This document shows positions 2,709-7,726 of a DNA stretch of 26,448 nucleotides, piece after piece. Positions within the stretch are counted from its first letter, which is position 1. Each line of letters opens with the position of its first letter. Source of the stretch: Nitrososphaera sp. (GTDB lineage: Archaea; Thermoproteota; EX4484-205; JAAOZO01); contig JBAMLO010000035.1 of NCBI GenBank assembly GCA_039793485.1, forward strand, positions 9,506-35,953, read 5' to 3'. A model generated the notes under the pieces. That model was not told the DNA's origin. It worked only from the letters and a program-made list of their open reading frames with translations, and ran no database searches. A program made the translations under genes and the position numbers.

Positions 2709-2909
2709 TTGACCTTAAGTTATAGAAGAACTATGAAAGCTATTAAAATTTTCGTTAAGAGAAGCTACGTAGCAGTTTGGAAGTGGGTTCAAAGGTTTCC
2801 AGGCTTTAGAAAGCTCTTTAAAGTTAATTGTAGAGTTCAGCTTTTCTTAGTTAACGAAACTTTAATTAACGCTGGAGGAAAACTAAGTGGCTTACGAACC
2901 TTACTCTAA
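2709..2909 (+). pseudogene. Possible remnant of a transposase helix-turn-helix (IS630/Tc1-like), a degenerate fragment and not an intact gene
   Basis: The 66-aa ORF contains 'KRSYVAVWKWVQRF'. This resembles the C-terminal end of transposase HTH_Tnp motifs ('SRSTVYRWVKRF'). It sits in a 588-bp gene-free gap with slightly elevated GC. No full-length transposase or terminal inverted repeats were identified. Confidence 0.2.
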
Positions 2910-2913
2910 AAAA
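2908..2913 (-). terminator. Oligo-T tract (T6 on the minus strand) ~50 nt downstream of the operon's last gene; candidate archaeal terminator
   Basis: Plus-strand 'ctctaaaaaatac' reads as TTTTTT on the minus strand after the TAA stop at 2960. Archaeal RNAP terminates at oligo-T. Confidence 0.3.
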
Positions 2914-2959: not shown

Positions 2960-3952
2960 TTAGATGTCGAAAGTAATTGGAACATTAGCCTTAAAACCAG
3001 CGAATTTTTCAATTAAGCTAGCCACTTCCACTGTAGACAACAGAGAATCCTTCTTTGAAATTTCTTCTGAACCTCTTTCTTTTAAAGACAGAGCTGTCAA
3101 TAAAAGAGGAGCTGAACTAACAAGTGAACCAATAAAACCTAGCATGATCCCTAAGACTGCGTTACTAACTAGAATCGAACCTATCATCATGCCTCCTAAA
3201 CTTGAAGTAGCTACTATAGCAACAGAAGAGATTAGTAAGAAAGTCTTTGCCTCTCTACTCAACGGATATTCAACAAACATAACTCTTCCGTTTGTCCCAT
3301 CTATTAGCCCCTTGTAAGATTCATTTTTGTAGTTGTAGTGAAACTCCCAAATAGGATAGTGAACTAGACCAACGTAATTTACATCAACTTTGCTTACCTG
3401 CGAATAACCTCTGCAACTTTCATTGGCTTCTCTTAAAACTAAGGAATTAACTATGCTTTGAGATAAGTTTTTTGCAGATTCGCTTGGAATACTTGGAGGA
3501 TAGTACTTTCCTCTCTCAAGCACAGAAGGTTTAAAGAACATTCTTCCTCTAACAGAAAACTTATGAGACCTTAAGAGAGAATCAAACCAAAAACCGTTGT
3601 GAGCAGGAATTGCAAGGTCTAAAACTTTGTGGTAAGTTGCAGTGCCTTTTTTTGATTGGCAAGTTGCCTCAGCTTCTGCATGAAAGACGTGTAAGGGTAT
3701 GTAGTGAAGAATTATGTTTGTTATGTTCGAAGATTCATAAAAGTCATGCGGAACACCATACCTTCTTAGTATAAAACTTCTTAGTTTTAGCCAAGCTGAA
3801 TTTTGGTTAAAGTAAACTGGGAAGAAGTAATGGACCCACTCTTGAAGAGTTTGTAAGTTGAAAGTATAACCACAGTAAGGACAAGTTGTGAACGATGCAG
3901 TTTCTATAACTTCGAATGAAGCTCCACAATTTGGGCACTTTACTTGCTTCAA
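2960..3952 (-). CDS. Zinc-ribbon / two-TM membrane protein, paralog B (4th gene of operon), function unknown
   Basis: N-terminal zinc ribbon of the C-x2-C...C-x2-C type ('VKCPNCGASFEVIETASFTTCPYCGYTF'). Central domain has 'YPIWEFHYNYKNESYKGLIDGTNGRV', paralogous to the upstream protein. Two C-terminal hydrophobic helices ('TFLLISSVAIVATSSLGGMMIGSIL', 'AVLGIMLGFIGSLVSSAPLLLTALSL') are followed by a ~40-aa charged tail. There is no in-frame ATG before the Zn ribbon. The TTG at 3952 sits 6 nt after a GGTGG SD. Confidence 0.65.
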   Translation of the reverse strand: MKQVKCPNCGASFEVIETASFTTCPYCGYTFNLQTLQEWVHYFFPVYFNQNSAWLKLRSFILRRYGVPHDFYESSNITNIILHYIPLHVFHAEAEATCQSKKGTATYHKVLDLAIPAHNGFWFDSLLRSHKFSVRGRMFFKPSVLERGKYYPPSIPSESAKNLSQSIVNSLVLREANESCRGYSQVSKVDVNYVGLVHYPIWEFHYNYKNESYKGLIDGTNGRVMFVEYPLSREAKTFLLISSVAIVATSSLGGMMIGSILVSNAVLGIMLGFIGSLVSSAPLLLTALSLKERGSEEISKKDSLLSTVEVASLIEKFAGFKANVPITFDI

Positions 3953-4939
3953 CTAGTGCCACCTTTCGACTCTAACGTCACTTATTGCAGTACTTGAAAG
4001 CGAATATGCAACAATAAAGCAAAGAAAGCCAACTACGATGAAAAAGAGACTACTGTTAGAATTACTTAAGCTACCGATGTTTCTTAGCCATAAAGAAATT
4101 ACGCTTACTCCGATAAGCACTGCAACCAACGAACCAACCAAGTTTAAAATTCTCTGGCGAAAGAAAACAGGTTCCGTAGTTTTCAAAAAAACTAAATCAT
4201 AACCAGAAATTGCAGTATTATAAATTCCATTTTTGTACTTATATGTTATTACCCATAGTGGAACCAACAACAAAATTACTTCTGTTATAGTAGTACTACA
4301 AGAGTAAAAATTGAACTCACTTAAATTATTACTAGACCTTATTTTTTGCCTTGTGATATCTTCTGCTTTATCTTTGATTTCATCAATTGCCTCAGATTGA
4401 CTAATTTCAGTGTTCAAAACCTGAAGCTTAATGTCGCTCCAATTTGATTCTTCAAGCTTAATGTAGTTTGGAGGTAAACTGCTTACTTTTGAAATTAGTT
4501 CATCTAAACCAAATTCTTCAGCAGTCCTTCTTGCTGGGATAGAAAGTAATAGCCTATCTGAAAACTTACCTTCTTTTTGAATTCTTTCTATCCTAGTACG
4601 CTTGCCAGAAGAAACTGTTCTTACTTCAACTCCGCTCCATGTAGAGAAAACTTCAACCTTAGATAAGAAAGTTGGAACATAGACACCGTAAGTGTCTACT
4701 ACTTCTAGCTCTTGAACTATTCTGCCCATATCACTATCTTTCTTCATCCTATTCCAGAATGCCTCTAGAATTTTGTCTCTAGGTTTAGAAGGTACAACGA
4801 AGATCTGAACTTTAGACTCATCAACAAACCAGTTCGTGTACCCACAGTAGGAGCATACAACAAAAATGCTGTCTGGAGTGTACTCTATAGGAGCACCGCA
4901 TCTTTTGCACTTGACTACTGTTTCTTGTGTTCCCTGCAT
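3953..4939 (-). CDS. Zinc-ribbon / two-TM membrane protein, paralog A (3rd gene of operon), function unknown
   Basis: ATG at 4939. N-terminal zinc ribbon 'VKCKRCGAPIEYTPDSIFVVCSYCGYTNWF'. Central domain contains 'VPLWVITYKYKNGIYNTAISGYD'. Two C-terminal TM helices ('ILNLVGSLVAVLIGVSVISLWL', 'LFFIVVGFLCFIVAYSLSSTAI'). Clear paralogy with 2960..3952. Confidence 0.7.
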   Translation of the reverse strand: MQGTQETVVKCKRCGAPIEYTPDSIFVVCSYCGYTNWFVDESKVQIFVVPSKPRDKILEAFWNRMKKDSDMGRIVQELEVVDTYGVYVPTFLSKVEVFSTWSGVEVRTVSSGKRTRIERIQKEGKFSDRLLLSIPARRTAEEFGLDELISKVSSLPPNYIKLEESNWSDIKLQVLNTEISQSEAIDEIKDKAEDITRQKIRSSNNLSEFNFYSCSTTITEVILLLVPLWVITYKYKNGIYNTAISGYDLVFLKTTEPVFFRQRILNLVGSLVAVLIGVSVISLWLRNIGSLSNSNSSLFFIVVGFLCFIVAYSLSSTAISDVRVERWH

Positions 4940-4950
4940 GCTTAACTAAA

Positions 4951-5955
4951 TCACTTTTGCTCTTCTTTTATTTCAGCGCCACAAATTGGACAGAACTTTG
5001 CATCTGGAGCTACCAAATGACCATTTGGGCACCACTTCAGTTTAGCGCCGCACTGAGGACAAAATCTTGCCTTTACTGGAACAAAAGAATAACCACAGTA
5101 AGGGCACTTTATAAACTGTGGAGTTGTTTGCTGCGTGGGTGGAGGTGGAGGAGGCTGAGCTTGAGTAGTAGGAGGCTGTTGAGAAGGGGGAGGGGGATAC
5201 ATGACTGGAGGAATTATAGCAACTCCAGCACCAACCGCTGCTCCTGGGCTCTTAGAAAGTTCCTTTGCAACTTGCTTTGCAGTATCCATTTGCATTACGT
5301 AAGAAGCACTTCCAGTTTGTTTGATCCAGAAGACTCTTTGCCTCCAGTCATCTGAAGTATCAACGCCTTCAAATTTAACGTCTAGTAAGTCAAGGCCTAT
5401 TCTTTTGAATTCGTCCTGTAGCCTAGCGTTTACTTCAGAGCTTACTCTATCTAAGTTAGTAAACACGTCAACTATGCTGTACTTTGAAAGTAGCTTTATT
5501 AGACCTTCGTTGAAGTATCCTCTTAAGAAGTTGTTTAGGGACTCTGTGTCAAACAAGCTTTGGCCTCCAACAATTTCATTCACAAATAAGTTAGCATCGT
5601 TTACCTTAAACCAATACGTACCATGAAACTGAAGTGGGGCCAATTCTGTAGTTTGAGTGTTTCCACCAAACTTGCCTTTAAACTGCTTTAACGAAACAAA
5701 AATTACTGTAGACCTAAACGGGATTTTATCAAAACCAGCGATTGGGGAAAGCACTTTAGTTATTAATGGTAAGTTTAAGGTTGTTATCGTATGTCGACCA
5801 GCACCAAAGATGTCATAAACTTTTCCGTCTCTATAAAAGACAGCAACTTCAAACTCATGAACTATAAGTTGACTACCCCACTCTATTTCCTCAGAAGGGT
5901 ACTTCCAGACGATATCTTCAGAACTTGGGTTTATCCATTCGATAACTTTTGGCAT
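4951..5955 (-). CDS. SPFH/Band-7-like protein with Pro/Gln-rich linker and tandem C-terminal zinc ribbons (COG4260 / YdjI-like), no TM segment
   Basis: ATG at 5955, preceded by a GGGTGA SD 6 nt upstream. The N-terminal ~240 aa ('VIEWINPSSEDIVWKYPSEEIEWGSQLIVHEFEVAVFYRDGKVYDIFGAGRHTITT...') match the stomatin/prohibitin-like fold family annotated as COG4260. The linker is 'PPPPSQQPPTTQAQPPPPPPTQQTTPQ'. The C-terminus is 'CPYCG...CPQCG' followed by 'CPNGH...CPICG'. Confidence 0.75.
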   Translation of the reverse strand: MPKVIEWINPSSEDIVWKYPSEEIEWGSQLIVHEFEVAVFYRDGKVYDIFGAGRHTITTLNLPLITKVLSPIAGFDKIPFRSTVIFVSLKQFKGKFGGNTQTTELAPLQFHGTYWFKVNDANLFVNEIVGGQSLFDTESLNNFLRGYFNEGLIKLLSKYSIVDVFTNLDRVSSEVNARLQDEFKRIGLDLLDVKFEGVDTSDDWRQRVFWIKQTGSASYVMQMDTAKQVAKELSKSPGAAVGAGVAIIPPVMYPPPPSQQPPTTQAQPPPPPPTQQTTPQFIKCPYCGYSFVPVKARFCPQCGAKLKWCPNGHLVAPDAKFCPICGAEIKEEQK

Positions 5956-5957
5956 GT

Positions 5958-6443
5958 CTACTCACCCTTTGAAACATCAAATACATGATTTCTAGCGTCT
6001 ACTGCATTACTTAAAGCCCTGATTTTTCCCTTTAATTCAGCCAGCAATGAAGCGTTTTCTCTAACTTTTTGTGCTAGGGAGACTATTTCTTCACAACTAG
6101 AAACAAGTTCAGCATCTAACCTTTTAAGCTGTTCAAGCTCTTTTTCAGTTATCTTTATCCTATCAAAGTAACCAGAGTAGCCCATGGTAGAAACTCTTAT
6201 CTTCGTACCTAAAGAACTTAGATCTTTAGCAGTGGCATTCAGCTCAGAAACATTGATTGGAATCTTCCCATCTAGGGAGTCAGACAAATATGACCTAATG
6301 GTTTCTTCGGCTTCTTTTATTTTATTAAACAAGTAGTTTCTTATTAGTTTGTCATCTTCTCTTATAAGTTCTTTTTGTTTATAGCCTCTAAAGCCTGGAA
6401 TTATTAGCTCAAGTTTCTCCAAGGTCTTTAACTCTTTTGACAT
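5958..6443 (-). CDS. Small all-helical coiled-coil protein (1st gene of operon); candidate PspA/ESCRT-III-like membrane-remodelling partner, unproven
   Basis: The ORF track gives 5958..6542. The first 33 codons of that call overlap the TATA box, so the start was reassigned to the ATG at 6443 ('MSKELKTLEKLEL...'). The protein is 161 aa with heptad-rich, charged segments ('EKELEQLKRLDAELVSS...LLAELKGKIRALSNAVDA') and no TM helix. Its TAG stop is 2 nt from the next gene's ATG. Confidence 0.6.
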   Translation of the reverse strand: MSKELKTLEKLELIIPGFRGYKQKELIREDDKLIRNYLFNKIKEAEETIRSYLSDSLDGKIPINVSELNATAKDLSSLGTKIRVSTMGYSGYFDRIKITEKELEQLKRLDAELVSSCEEIVSLAQKVRENASLLAELKGKIRALSNAVDARNHVFDVSKGE

Positions 6444-6467
6444 TTTGAGTTTTATAATTATACAACC

Positions 6468-6475
6468 TTTATAAA
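6468..6475 (-). promoter_or_regulatory. TATA box (TTTATAAA) with an upstream purine-rich BRE-like 'AAAGC', centred ~-28 from the ATG at 6443; leaderless promoter of the four-gene operon
   Basis: The minus-strand reading is 'aaagcTTTATAAAggttgtataattataaaactcaaaATG'. Confidence 0.45.
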
Positions 6476-6547
6476 GCTTTTTGTTTCCTAATTTTGCCAA
6501 TAGAAAGCTGTGCTCTATAAGCAAAAAAGTCAGCATGCTCATAAAAG

Positions 6548-7726
6548 TTAAAGCAGTAAGAGTAAGAAGCTAATAAAGTTGATTGCCGAACCAAAAACGA
6601 ATGGTACCCAATGGCCATAGTTCCAAAGGGCTCCAGATATGAAAGGACCAAGAGAGCCAGCAAGCATAGTGAAAGAGTCAAGCACTCCAACTGCAGTTGC
6701 AAAATTCTCTTCTGAAACATCCTGCATTATTAGTCTTCTTGCTGGCATATCCATTGCACCTACAACACCTTGAAGTATCATAACTATAACAGCCAAGAAA
6801 AAAGAATTTATGAACGGATAGACCCACCAAATTAAGGAAGAAAGAAAGACGTGTGATAGAAGAATAATTTTCCCACCAACCCTGTCAGAAAGTCTTCCAA
6901 AGGGTATTTGAAATATTGCATTTCCAATGCTCCATATTGCAAGTAGGAGTCCAATTGTTGCATCGTCAAAATTTTGGTCTAGACGGGCAACCAACGGAAT
7001 GAAGGTGTACGAAGTTAAAAATCCTATAGTATGAAACGACAAAGCTATCGAGAGCTTCCTCACCGAAGAATTCTTTATGAAGAAGTCTAACCCTTTTTTA
7101 AAGTCGTCTAAAGTGAAGAGAATGAAATTGTTTTTTGCAGAACTGTTAGATTTACGAACAACGTAAGTTACTATGACCAATGAAAAAAAGGAAAGAGCAC
7201 CACCAGCTATAAACAATGATTTATAACCAAAGCTTTGTGCCATGATTCCGGAAAGGGTTTGGCCGATAACCTGAGAAGTCATGGTAAACGCATAGTACCA
7301 ACCAAATGCTAACGCAACCTTTCCTTTTGAAGAAGCTTTCGACACATACGAGGAAACAGATGGTCCATAGATAGCTGTTCCTATCCACAACAGGACAACA
7401 AGTATAGAAAAAAGAATAGGGTTTGAAACTAAGTACATAAGAAAAAGGGAGACGCTGCATAAAGAAAAGCTCCAAACAATAGGTAATCTATAACCAAGCT
7501 TGTCAGCTATAACACCACTTGGAAGAGTTAGCAGAGCAAATGCAAGCCTAGCTATAGTAACGACCAATCCAACCATGAAAGCATCAAGCCCCAGTTGACT
7601 AAGATAAAGAACTAACAAAGAAGTAGATAAATTAAAACCCAGAACAAGTAAACTAACTGAAAAACTTACTAAGACTAGATTTCTAGTTAGACCTAGGTCC
7701 CTAAGATTCAAGCTCGGAAGAACCAA
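6548..7726 (-). CDS. Major facilitator superfamily (MFS) transporter
   Basis: About 12 predicted TM helices. Loop motifs 'GVIADKLGYR' and 'GRLSDRVGGK' resemble the MFS signature G-x-L-a-D-r-x-G-r-k-x-x-l (loops 2-3 and 8-9). The start is TTG at 7726 or the TTG 15 nt downstream; the first ATG would truncate TM1. A TATA 'TTTTATA' lies ~20 nt upstream. Confidence 0.75.
   Translation of the reverse strand: MVLPSLNLRDLGLTRNLVLVSFSVSLLVLGFNLSTSLLVLYLSQLGLDAFMVGLVVTIARLAFALLTLPSGVIADKLGYRLPIVWSFSLCSVSLFLMYLVSNPILFSILVVLLWIGTAIYGPSVSSYVSKASSKGKVALAFGWYYAFTMTSQVIGQTLSGIMAQSFGYKSLFIAGGALSFFSLVIVTYVVRKSNSSAKNNFILFTLDDFKKGLDFFIKNSSVRKLSIALSFHTIGFLTSYTFIPLVARLDQNFDDATIGLLLAIWSIGNAIFQIPFGRLSDRVGGKIILLSHVFLSSLIWWVYPFINSFFLAVIVMILQGVVGAMDMPARRLIMQDVSEENFATAVGVLDSFTMLAGSLGPFISGALWNYGHWVPFVFGSAINFISFLLLLL

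Follow-up and report, generated by a model that had tools for sequence, protein, structure and literature searches.

A four-gene operon probably encoding an archaeal version of the SPFH-YdjG membrane module

Does an archaeal operon that combines a soluble SPFH protein with zinc-ribbon membrane proteins encode a counterpart of the Bacillus subtilis pspA-ydjGHI (also pspA-samGHI) system, as suggested in an earlier note on this DNA? The operon, whose genes are called g1 to g4 in the order of their reading, lies in a stretch of 26,448 nucleotides from an archaeal contig (hereafter the window). We consider it probable that the locus encodes the SPFH-YdjG ('Sam') membrane module in an archaeal form, with the roles for the four proteins proposed below.

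Operon layout and the soluble pair g1-g2

The four open reading frames, all on the minus strand, are tightly coupled at 2960-6443 of the window, with spacers of 2 nt (g1/g2), 11 nt (g2/g3) and 0 nt (g3/g4), and the close packing described in the earlier note therefore holds. A candidate TATA box, TTTATAAA (6468..6475, minus strand), was read from the sequence as the operon promoter; its centre lies ~28 nt before the g1 ATG, a distance that would imply a leaderless or near-leaderless mRNA. That ATG, at 6443, is the start of all 33 aligned homologs, and a longer g1 frame from 6542 was rejected. GGTGA is found upstream of g2 and AGGTGG upstream of g4, the latter within the codons for a conserved ERW at the C-terminus of g3, and a T6 tract (2908..2913, minus strand), ~47 nt past the g4 stop, is a candidate archaeal terminator. 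The operon is probably transcribed into a single leaderless mRNA, and translation of its genes is probably coupled. The genes around it are housekeeping or metabolic. An MFS transporter gene (6548-7726) lies directly upstream, as it does in two other loci (L009 and L029); among ~110 loci, this neighbour is limited to the Brockarchaeota-like clade.

The second gene, g2 (4951..5955, minus strand; 334 aa), encodes an SPFH protein of the Band_7_1/COG4260/YdjI-SamI type (Pfam Band_7_1 1.6e-27, Band_7 3.5e-21, DZR 2.2e-10), and a hydropathy scan found no TM segment, so that both the family and the missing helix were correctly predicted beforehand. The SPFH domain (~16-213) is followed by a Pro/Gln-rich linker (~244-278) and a double zinc ribbon (284-325). 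Two Cys4 ribbons had been claimed; this is true of the first, but the second is Cys3His (C309-x3-H313 ... C322-x2-C325, 'CPNGH'), a form kept in the Brockarchaeota-like and Thermococcus clade, with CxxC in other clades. We recovered 974 relatives of g2 at E<=1e-10, and among the best 120 of these the source names, where given, are only archaeal. On the proposed reading, g2 would most likely form a higher-order oligomer at the cytoplasmic face of the membrane.

The first gene, g1 (5958..6443, minus strand; 161 aa), encodes a soluble protein with a compact four-helix fold (AF2 model, pLDDT 83, pTM 0.79) and two surface loop motifs that are invariant in the 33-homolog alignment, IPGFRGYKQKExxREDDxLIR (residues 15-35) and GYSGxFDRVKxxE (residues 88-100). 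All 32 g1 members match the NCBIfam model NF047596 LIMLP_15305 of Leptospira (best E 7.4e-18) and align over nearly its full length, but with scores below the curated cut-off and far under its 210-bit equivalog threshold; these alignments indicate that g1 is related to the uncharacterised LIMLP_15305 family.

In archaea, g1 almost always accompanies the SPFH gene on its upstream side: it lies directly upstream of g2 in 26 of the 27 genome loci examined that hold g2, the sole exception (L017) being a locus whose upstream DNA is absent from the sequence, and g2 comes directly next in 71 of the 80 g1 loci from metagenomes. The pair is spread from Thermococcus to Bathyarchaeia, frequently with overlapping stop and start codons at the junction, and this near-obligate dyad is the core of the module. 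From this linkage, g1 would probably bind the SPFH oligomer stoichiometrically, as a regulator, cap or output subunit.

The membrane paralogs g3 and g4

The two remaining genes encode zinc-ribbon membrane proteins of the YdjG/SamG family. In g3 (3953..4939, minus strand; 328 aa), an N-terminal Cys4 ribbon (C11, C14, C29, C32) precedes an α/β core with long β-hairpins and the motif 'PLWxxxYKYKxGxY', followed by C-terminal TM helices at 260-286 and 294-319 (AF2, pLDDT 82); no PDB structure matches the core significantly. Its paralog g4 (2960..3952, minus strand; 330 aa), which starts with TTG right after the g3 stop codon, has an N-terminal ribbon (C6, C9, C24, C27), an α/β core with the motif 'YPIWxxHYNYKNxxY', two TM segments at ~238-289 according to hydropathy, and a cytoplasmic tail of ~45 aa. 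Orthologs of g4 occur in Thermococcus and at locus L001. The four ribbon cysteines are invariant in each protein, and the two, weakly but genuinely similar, are ancient paralogs. Alignment, the AF2 model of g3 and the hydropathy of g4 all bear out the N-terminal ribbon and two-helix C-terminal anchor first noted for both.

A profile search with g3/g4 gave 2744 cluster representatives at E<=1e-3, including Clostridia proteins with two zinc ribbons, the same core and one TM segment. Against the g3 HMM alone, YdjG-like proteins of bacteria reach 72-86 bits, and against a joint g3/g4 HMM 102-133 bits; in Clostridia, Enterococcus and Comamonas such relatives adjoin genes for Band_7_1 SPFH proteins with zinc ribbons and/or TPM (YdjH-type) proteins. 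The YdjG-like gene is directly 3' of a Band_7_1+DZR SPFH gene in L114 and L115, 5' of a TPM gene in L116, and between the two in L117 (Enterococcus). Judged by their architecture, by HMM scores against these SPFH/TPM-linked homologs and by the published description of YdjG, g3 and g4 belong to one family with the bacterial YdjG-like proteins. The architectures published for YdjG, YdjH and YdjI (PMC11237479; PMC8581546) agree with those of the bacterial relatives. Since B. subtilis YdjG consists of zinc ribbons, a globular domain and a TM segment (PMC11237479), and the bacterial homologs share this layout, a zinc ribbon plus TM anchor is the normal architecture of the family, and the fusion pointed out earlier is not a novelty of the locus.

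The four-gene arrangement recurs in many lineages and is more than chance. The same order is found in a Brockarchaeota MAG (L009) and in L010, the order g3-g4-g1-g2 in five Thermococcus loci and Geocrenenecus, and the set is split by 3 kb in L001; the genes thus co-occur beyond the source genome, as had been anticipated. The g3-g4 pair is one among several interchangeable membrane partners of g1-g2. In 41 well-flanked g1-g2 loci, a small 4-TM protein, 'g5', is absent from 8 of the 9 with TM-bearing YdjG-like pairs and present in 11 of the 13 with a TM-less single YdjG-like protein, a complementarity that supports g3 and g4 as a four-helix anchor. In 12 of the 41, neither a YdjG-like gene nor g5 lies within ~6 kb, and the L004 lineage has g3-g4 without g1-g2 nearby, which indicates that the two halves can work, or at least be encoded, apart. 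A g1-g2 core with exchangeable partners had been missed by the earlier note.

Likeness to known SPFH systems

The operon and B. subtilis pspA-ydjGHI both encode a Band_7_1 SPFH protein that is soluble and has a low-complexity linker as well as a C-terminal zinc ribbon (YdjI/SamI, the counterpart of g2), and both encode membrane proteins in which an N-terminal TFIIB-type zinc ribbon is combined with a globular α/β domain and with an anchor of TM type (YdjG/SamG, the counterpart of g3 and g4). In both, the gene of a helical protein comes first and all soluble parts are cytoplasmic. It differs in its archaeal host and leaderless promoter context, in a first gene from a four-helix family unrelated to PspA/ESCRT-III, in the doubling of the YdjG-like gene into two ancient paralogs, each with a single ribbon where YdjG has two and a pair of TM helices where YdjG has one, and in lacking the TPM protein YdjH/SamH, no such partner being present in any archaeal locus examined. 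The proposed likeness to PspA-YdjGHI is therefore partial: YdjI and YdjG types are present, YdjH and PspA are not. In Bacillus, YdjH/SamH is the carrier of the signalling phenotype.

SPFH-YdjG-like dyads also occur in bacteria. In Christensenella (L114), Clostridia (L115), Enterococcus (L117) and Comamonas (L118), a Band_7_1 gene, with or without ribbon, adjoins a YdjG-family gene, with no pspA within flanks of 4-6 kb on each side, which points to SPFH-YdjG as the conserved core; these dyads differ from the archaeal operon in having no g1 homolog, a single YdjG-like gene and often a TPM gene after it. The Band_7_1/DUF4178/DUF350 polyamine operons of Proteobacteria (Ravi et al. 2024; Novosphingobium L032, Ralstonia L033) likewise have Band_7_1 followed by one or two proteins that begin with the same CPxCGA...CxxC ribbon, and a small multi-TM DUF350 protein comparable to g5, although g5 has no Pfam match to DUF350. 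There, however, the partner proteins have the β-rich DUF4178 in place of the YdjG core, genes of polyamine synthesis are included and the SPFH protein has no C-terminal ribbon.

Among archaeal systems, the stomatin-NfeD pair (e.g. Pyrococcus PH1511/PH1510) also joins an SPFH protein and a membrane partner in one operon, but stomatin is TM-anchored, of another SPFH family, and paired with an NfeD protease/OB-fold protein, whereas g2 is a soluble protein and none of g1-g4 has an NfeD domain in Pfam. The 'Meth_adaptin' ESCRT loci contain a protein that unites SPFH, coiled-coil and Zn-ribbon parts and that its authors relate to YdjI-PspA (Makarova et al. 2024, PMC11188069). It resembles g2 as an SPFH protein of archaea that bears a zinc ribbon, but its loci also carry genes for Vps4, ESCRT-III, adaptin-appendage and GOLD-domain proteins, of which the window and the related loci show none. 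As previously stated, the literature searched holds no characterised archaeal counterpart.

SamI of Bacillus is recruited by SamG/H and in turn restrains their signalling (bioRxiv 10.64898/2026.02.06.704340). By analogy, g3 and g4, each with a cytoplasmic ribbon and α/β domain and a TM hairpin, would most likely assemble into a heteromeric anchor or sensor with four membrane helices, which recruits g2 and is regulated by it, with g1 in the operon position of pspA without being its homolog. Such a module would likely act at the membrane in housekeeping surveillance, in organisation or in the signalling of stress.

Alternative readings

An unlikely alternative is that g2 with g1 forms a stomatin/HflKC-like enclosure controlling an unlinked membrane client (a protease, transporter or channel), g3 and g4 being only adaptors or themselves clients, with no stress signalling. 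Scaffolding of FtsH, NfeD or channels is a common role of SPFH proteins (10.64898/2026.02.06.704340, discussion), and both the 12 of 41 loci without a linked membrane partner and the upstream MFS gene fit this idea. Across ~110 loci, however, there is no recurring client gene (protease, NfeD or other), the clade restriction of the MFS neighbour speaks against it, Band_7_1 proteins have no TM anchor, and g2 appears to have none of the long coiled-coil wall typical of cage-forming SPFH proteins. It is very unlikely that g1 is instead a highly diverged membrane-remodelling effector of PspA/ESCRT-III type, making the operon a true PspA-YdjGI equivalent. The gene does hold the position of pspA, its product is all-helical with a very weak Pfam match to PspAA (E 0.15), and a phmmer comparison of E. 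coli PspA with a local ORF set has g1 proteins among its weak, non-significant matches; Pfam, profile comparison and predicted fold nevertheless all argue against PspA, in line with the earlier judgement that the upstream partner is not a canonical one.

The abortive-infection alternative raised earlier, in which an SPFH scaffold senses infection and the ribbon-TM proteins or the g1 helical bundle permeabilise the membrane, is highly improbable and finds nothing in its favour in PADLOC (0 of 4 proteins matched at E<0.01) or among 2.9 million viral contigs of IMG/VR (no g1 or g3/g4 relatives). The neighbouring genes are metabolic, the module is in every Thermococcus locus examined with an inheritance that looks vertical and not patchy, and structural matches are generic helical bundles or have a probability <0.1. 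There is scarcely any likelihood that TFIIB-like ribbons bind nucleic acid and make the module a membrane-tethered regulator of transcription or translation. DNA binding by the YdjG ribbon is a speculation of Popp et al. (PMC9239133), the Comamonas SPFH protein bears an HTH domain, and g3, g4 and their bacterial homologs give weak-to-moderate matches to the Pfam TFIIB zinc-ribbon model; but a short Cys4 ribbon is a generic module for structure or protein-protein contact, and neither an HTH nor any other DNA-binding domain is present in the archaeal proteins. In bacterial Band_7_1 operons, the β-rich DUF4178 proteins begin with a ribbon of this type too, which suggests that it serves as a module of SPFH partners.

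Layout and signals of the operon

The operon comprises four minus-strand genes, g1 (5958-6443, 161 aa), g2 (4951-5955, 334 aa), g3 (3953-4939, 328 aa) and g4 (2960-3952, 330 aa, with a TTG start), separated by gaps of only 2, 11 and 0 nt, which confirms the tight packing described in the earlier note. The expression signals proposed there can likewise all be read in the sequence: a candidate TATA box (TTTATAAA, 6468-6475), whose centre lies ~28 nt upstream of the g1 ATG, a spacing that fits the expectation for an archaeal TATA box and a leaderless mRNA; putative Shine-Dalgarno motifs ahead of g2 (GGTGA) and g4 (AGGTGG); and a T6 tract (2908-2913) after g4. The longest possible g1 ORF reaches back to 6542, and we place the start at the ATG at 6443 because all 33 aligned homologs begin there. 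As publicly annotated, the identical protein (P0019, 192 aa) has ~31 more residues at its N-terminus (window 6444-6542), which, from the homolog alignment, represent a mis-called start.

The AGGTGG ahead of g4 lies within the codons for a conserved Glu-Arg-Trp at the C-terminus of g3, an arrangement kept in relatives. At this junction (3950-3975), the codons GAAAGGTGG appear to double as the g4 Shine-Dalgarno sequence, and the same arrangement is found in the related loci L009 (L009:5607-5650), L011, L004 and L010. In the clade of the window, the TAG stop of g3 is followed directly and in the same frame by the TTG start of g4, so that stop read-through would yield a g3-g4 fusion protein; of the 21 genes in the window, 5 end normally at TAG. 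The spacer between g4 and the next gene (2372-2959) measures 588 nt, where the closest relative, L009, has just 43 nt, and its last 72 nt alone resemble the equivalent spacer of L011. No Rfam family, tRNA or Pfam domain was found in it and it is not repeated elsewhere; scanning the entire window likewise revealed no Rfam family or tRNA. The idea that an ORF in this spacer (2709-2909) is an IS fragment found no support, as it has neither a Pfam match nor a repeat elsewhere.

The SPFH protein g2 and the YdjG-like paralogs g3 and g4

The product of g2 (4951-5955) matched both SPFH families well above their cut-offs (PF13421, Band_7_1: 96.9 bits, E = 1.6e-27, cut-off 24; PF01145, Band_7: 76.5 bits, E = 3.5e-21, cut-off 23.6) and, after a Pro/Gln-rich linker, the Pfam DZR family at its C-terminus (E = 2.2e-10), in line with the Band_7/SPFH and COG4260 affiliation expected for it. 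No TM segment was detected by hydropathy. The two Cys4 ribbons previously assigned to the C-terminus do form a double ribbon, the second of which is instead of Cys3His type (C-x3-H...C-x2-C, 'CPNGH'; residues 309-325, window 4981-5028). The CPNGH knuckle is kept in Brockarchaeota-like, Thermococcus and some other clades (P0095, P0101, P0109 and other homologs), and the second ribbon carries a CxxC in Bathyarchaeia, Thermofilaceae and bacteria. Among 974 relatives of g2 at E ≤ 1e-10, the best 120 (50-96% identity) have only archaeal source names where these are given, among them Thermococcus, Thermofilaceae, Bathyarchaeia and Nezhaarchaeota. The window most closely resembles a Candidatus Brockarchaeota MAG, and its g2 is 94-100% identical to the contigs of L009, L011 and L029.

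Judged by its sequence, g2 is a predicted Band_7_1/COG4260 SPFH protein of the YdjI/SamI type. It adjoins a YdjG-family gene, g3 beginning 11 nt downstream, and a like adjacency is seen in bacteria, where the SPFH proteins of two loci (L114 and L115) have the same layout as g2, with no TM anchor, a linker and a C-terminal ribbon. As had been argued, the module is not the textbook archaeal stomatin-NfeD pair: that operon encodes a TM-anchored stomatin together with NfeD, whereas g2 has no TM segment and none of g1-g4 matches NfeD. g2 also differs from the SPFH protein encoded in ESCRT loci of the Meth_adaptin type (PMC11188069).

g3 and g4 both carry a ribbon, the motifs [SA]IPA and P[LI]WxxxYxYKxxxY, and two TM helices, with R..[VI]E at the C-terminus, and can be regarded as weak but genuine paralogs. 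Thermococcus and a distant Thermoproteota-type contig both have separate orthologs of the two, and the duplication is therefore ancient. The ribbon and two-helix anchor first recognised in the sequence of both proteins are borne out by closer analysis: the four ribbon cysteines are invariant in the alignment, the TFIIB-type ribbon PF08271 is among the best weak matches of both, and the AF2 model of g3 (pLDDT 82) has an N-terminal ribbon followed by a helix (residues 54-67), a long β-hairpin (79-135), two helices (145-154 and 181-203), more β-strands (206-254) and TM helices at 260-286 and 294-319. The core of g3 was unmatched among solved structures (best Foldseek match against the PDB non-significant, E = 0.06).

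A search of 1.84 billion cluster representatives with a g3+g4 profile gave 2744 matches at E ≤ 1e-3, of which 560 reach E ≤ 1e-10. One coherent subgroup is composed of bacterial proteins of 340-360 aa (Christensenella, other Clostridia) with two N-terminal ribbons, a P[LV]WxxxYxYKxxxY...G core motif as in g3/g4 and one TM segment; the archaeal g3 and g4 have one ribbon and two TM helices each. A joint g3/g4 HMM aligned over nearly full length, at 102-133 bits, with bacterial proteins whose genes are linked to those for SPFH and/or TPM proteins. Such YdjG-like genes directly follow a Band_7_1+DZR SPFH gene in L114 and L115, directly precede a TPM_phosphatase gene in L116, stand between SPFH and TPM genes in L117 (Enterococcus gallinarum), and follow an SPFH+HTH gene in L118 (Comamonas). 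The published layouts of the B. subtilis proteins are two ZnRs, an NTF2-like domain related to YpeB and a TM segment for YdjG, a TPM domain for YdjH, and a band-7 domain with a ZnR for YdjI (PMC11237479; PMC8581546; PMC9239133). Because the bacterial homologs match this published architecture and partnership, we assign g3 and g4, as predicted members, to the YdjG/SamG family, on the basis of the architecture in PMC11237479 and the Enterococcus SPFH-YdjG-like-TPM trio, B. subtilis YdjG being compared by its published description only. The fusion of ribbon and TM anchor, which had been taken for a peculiarity of this locus, is thus no such thing, since the bacterial homologs and published YdjG combine both.

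The resemblance to a PspA-YdjGHI module proposed in the earlier note holds for its YdjI-type (g2) and YdjG-type (g3/g4) components and fails for PspA and YdjH. Pfam detected no TPM (YdjH/SamH) domain in window ORFs of at least 100 aa, nor among the Pfam-annotated genes of a subset of the archaeal loci. In a phmmer search for PspA, run with an approximate E. coli sequence, no ORF of the window or of 113 fetched loci reached an E-value below 0.004, and the top match was a short ORF of ~80 aa. In contrast to the Bacillus YdjI-YdjG system, the window operon has neither PspA nor a TPM protein, its YdjG-like protein is duplicated with two TM helices in each copy, and it adds the tightly linked g1, all in an archaeal, leaderless-promoter context. 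Because the bacterial dyads of L114, L115, L117 and L118 are also without PspA in the fetched flanks (4-6 kb on either side), SPFH-YdjG, and not PspA, is the conserved core.

Gene neighbourhoods, the helical partner g1 and the proposed membrane anchor

Among the fetched genomes, 27 loci hold g2, and in 26 of these g1 lies directly upstream, including those of the cultured Thermococcus eurythermalis and Infirmifilum lucidum and of a Desulfurococcus MAG; the exception, L017, has no upstream DNA. At least 564 stretches in the metagenome collection encode g1, and among 80 metagenome loci with g1, 71 have g2 directly downstream. Of the other nine, most are truncated by the contig end; two are real exceptions, namely L079, with two genes inserted, and L113, from which g2 is absent. 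All four families also co-occur outside this genome: in the order g1-g2-g3-g4 in L009 (Brockarchaeota) and L010, as g3-g4-g1-g2 in five Thermococcus loci and Geocrenenecus, and split into two dyads 3 kb apart in L001. L004 holds g3-g4 alone. L010 (DUGO01000098.1) is a 4.9-kb contig labelled Methanoperedenaceae, with the gene order of the window. Its g2, at 71% identity, is much closer to that of the window than are the Thermococcus or Bathyarchaeia copies, which suggests horizontal transfer or a mis-binned contig.

g1 is more than the short coiled-coil protein it had seemed. Alignment of 33 homologs gave two invariant motifs, IPGFRGYKQKExxREDDxLIR and GYSGxFDRVKxxE, and the AF2 model (pLDDT 83, pTM 0.79) is a compact four-helix bundle (24-57, 65-84, 100-126, 133-152) with both motifs within connecting loops. 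A kinship of the protein encoded at 5958-6443 with PspA/IM30/Snf7, raised earlier, was rejected, as all tests of relationship to PspA/ESCRT-III failed: neither PF04012 (PspA_IM30) nor PF03357 (Snf7) was listed for g1 at E ≤ 1 or figured among the 25 most frequent Pfam families over 32 g1 members, a PDB profile search with g1 returned generic coiled coils only, hhalign against E. coli PspA (approximate query sequence) gave a probability of 0.09%, and g1 does not have the long α1-α2 helical hairpin of the PspA/ESCRT-III fold. The PspAA domain (PF22743), which combines three helices with a β-sheet of four strands, was also discarded (E = 0.15, with 12.8 bits where the cut-off is 27), the g1 model being all-helical. 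All 32 g1 members matched NCBIfam NF047596 (Leptospira LIMLP_15305; best E = 7.4e-18), and g1 therefore has bacterial relatives, themselves uncharacterised. With 24.2 bits for the window g1 against a curated equivalog cut-off of 210 bits, g1 is best classed as a homolog of NF047596 and not as a member of that equivalog. The one paper that mentions LIMLP_15305 does no more than list it beside an sRNA. No tblastn match to g1 was found on plasmids.

The commonest metagenomic layout is unlike that of the window: a single TM-less YdjG-like protein of ~250 aa precedes g1 and g2, which are followed by g5, a 4-TM protein of ~115 aa. g5, whose members span ~105-140 aa, is absent from the window, recurs beside g1-g2 in related loci and is a real family by HMM (L007:7494-7823, L008:7536-7883, L001:9999-10319, L018:1280-1642 and ~40 other loci). 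It has no match in Pfam, DUF350/YjfL included, and kinship with the TM region of g3/g4 found no support, its HMM missing the window g3 and g4. Anchors were classified in the 41 g1-g2 loci with at least 2.5 kb on both sides. g5 was absent from eight of nine loci with a TM-bearing YdjG-like pair and present in 11 of 13 with a single TM-less copy; the loci with no YdjG-like gene comprised seven with g5 and 12 without. On these data the membrane anchor would be modular, being either a duplicated YdjG-like protein with fused TM hairpins or a separate 4-TM protein. The complementarity of the hairpins (2+2) and g5 suggests that g3 and g4 jointly form the anchor that g5 supplies elsewhere.

In the Desulfurococcus MAG (L028:9456-13879), three genes lie downstream of g1-g2, encoding a 328-aa protein with a weak MIT-domain match (E = 4.9e-4, below cut-off), a ribbon protein of 491 aa that is weakly related to g3, and a 4-TM protein. 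Because MIT domains bind ESCRT-III tails, the first of these may be a lead to an ESCRT link.

Proposed function of the module

The best-supported reading of the module, in view of its family assignments, gene linkage, predicted folds and topology, is an archaeal Sam-like system. In B. subtilis, SamI is brought in by SamG/H, stabilises PspA foci and keeps signalling by SamGH in check (PMC8581546; bioRxiv 10.64898/2026.02.06.704340), and, as known for this species only, the focal membrane localisation of YdjI (SamI), which recruits PspA, depends on membrane partners (PMC8581546). If protein contacts and a role in stress can be extended from Bacillus by analogy, g2 would oligomerise on the cytoplasmic face of the membrane, anchored by a g3-g4 heteromer that probably also senses membrane state, and the invariant loops of g1 would bind g2 stoichiometrically, making g1 a regulator, cap or output.

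It seems unlikely to us that g1 is the effector itself, a new helical-bundle family in an ancient, PspA-independent form of membrane maintenance, loaded onto or released from the stressed membrane by a YdjG-anchored SPFH scaffold. Were this true, archaeal g1 would fill the role of PspA/ESCRT-III of Firmicutes, and SPFH-YdjG, present in Bacteria and Archaea, would be the ancestral core, with PspA a later bacterial add-on. The abortive-infection function offered as an alternative in the earlier note found no support. PADLOC-DB v2 gave no match for g1 and g2 and only ribbon-level noise for g3 and g4 (E > 0.01), neither g1 nor g3/g4 was found in viral contigs (IMG/VR), and all the Thermococcus loci that were fetched contain the module. 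The other genes of the window are metabolic or housekeeping (ADP-ribosylglycohydrolase, Gfo/Idh/MocA oxidoreductases, MFS transporter, DegT aminotransferase, GH1, glutamine synthetase, Lrp/AsnC, P-type ATPase, M42 peptidase).

The Sam-like reading concerns a module most of whose components belong to recognisable families, its functional role being proposed by analogy with Bacillus. To our knowledge, the pspA-samGHI operon of Bacillus, usually viewed as a PspA accessory system, is the sole studied partnership of a soluble Band_7_1 SPFH protein with a YdjG-type protein. Our analysis shows that the SPFH-YdjG pair is conserved in Bacteria and Archaea, often without PspA, and that archaea added a tightly linked, uncharacterised partner, g1, which recasts 'a PspA recruiter' as 'an autonomous SPFH membrane module'. 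Some archaeal proteins labelled just 'SPFH domain-containing protein' would thereby gain defined partners. These hypotheses can be put to the test in Thermococcus, since some members of the genus are genetically tractable and its loci contain the full set of four genes.

A ribbon of like type occurs in proteobacterial Band_7_1 operons on DUF4178 proteins. On bacterial chromids and plasmids (L032:5997-7915, L033:6073-7521, L031:6944-7522), the products encoded after Band_7_1 genes begin with CPxCGA...CxxC. Those in polyamine operons are DUF4178 proteins, and the one in Bacteroides is a zinc-ribbon protein. This ribbon, also found in g3, g4 and YdjG, may be a module that serves generally to pair proteins with Band_7_1 SPFH partners.
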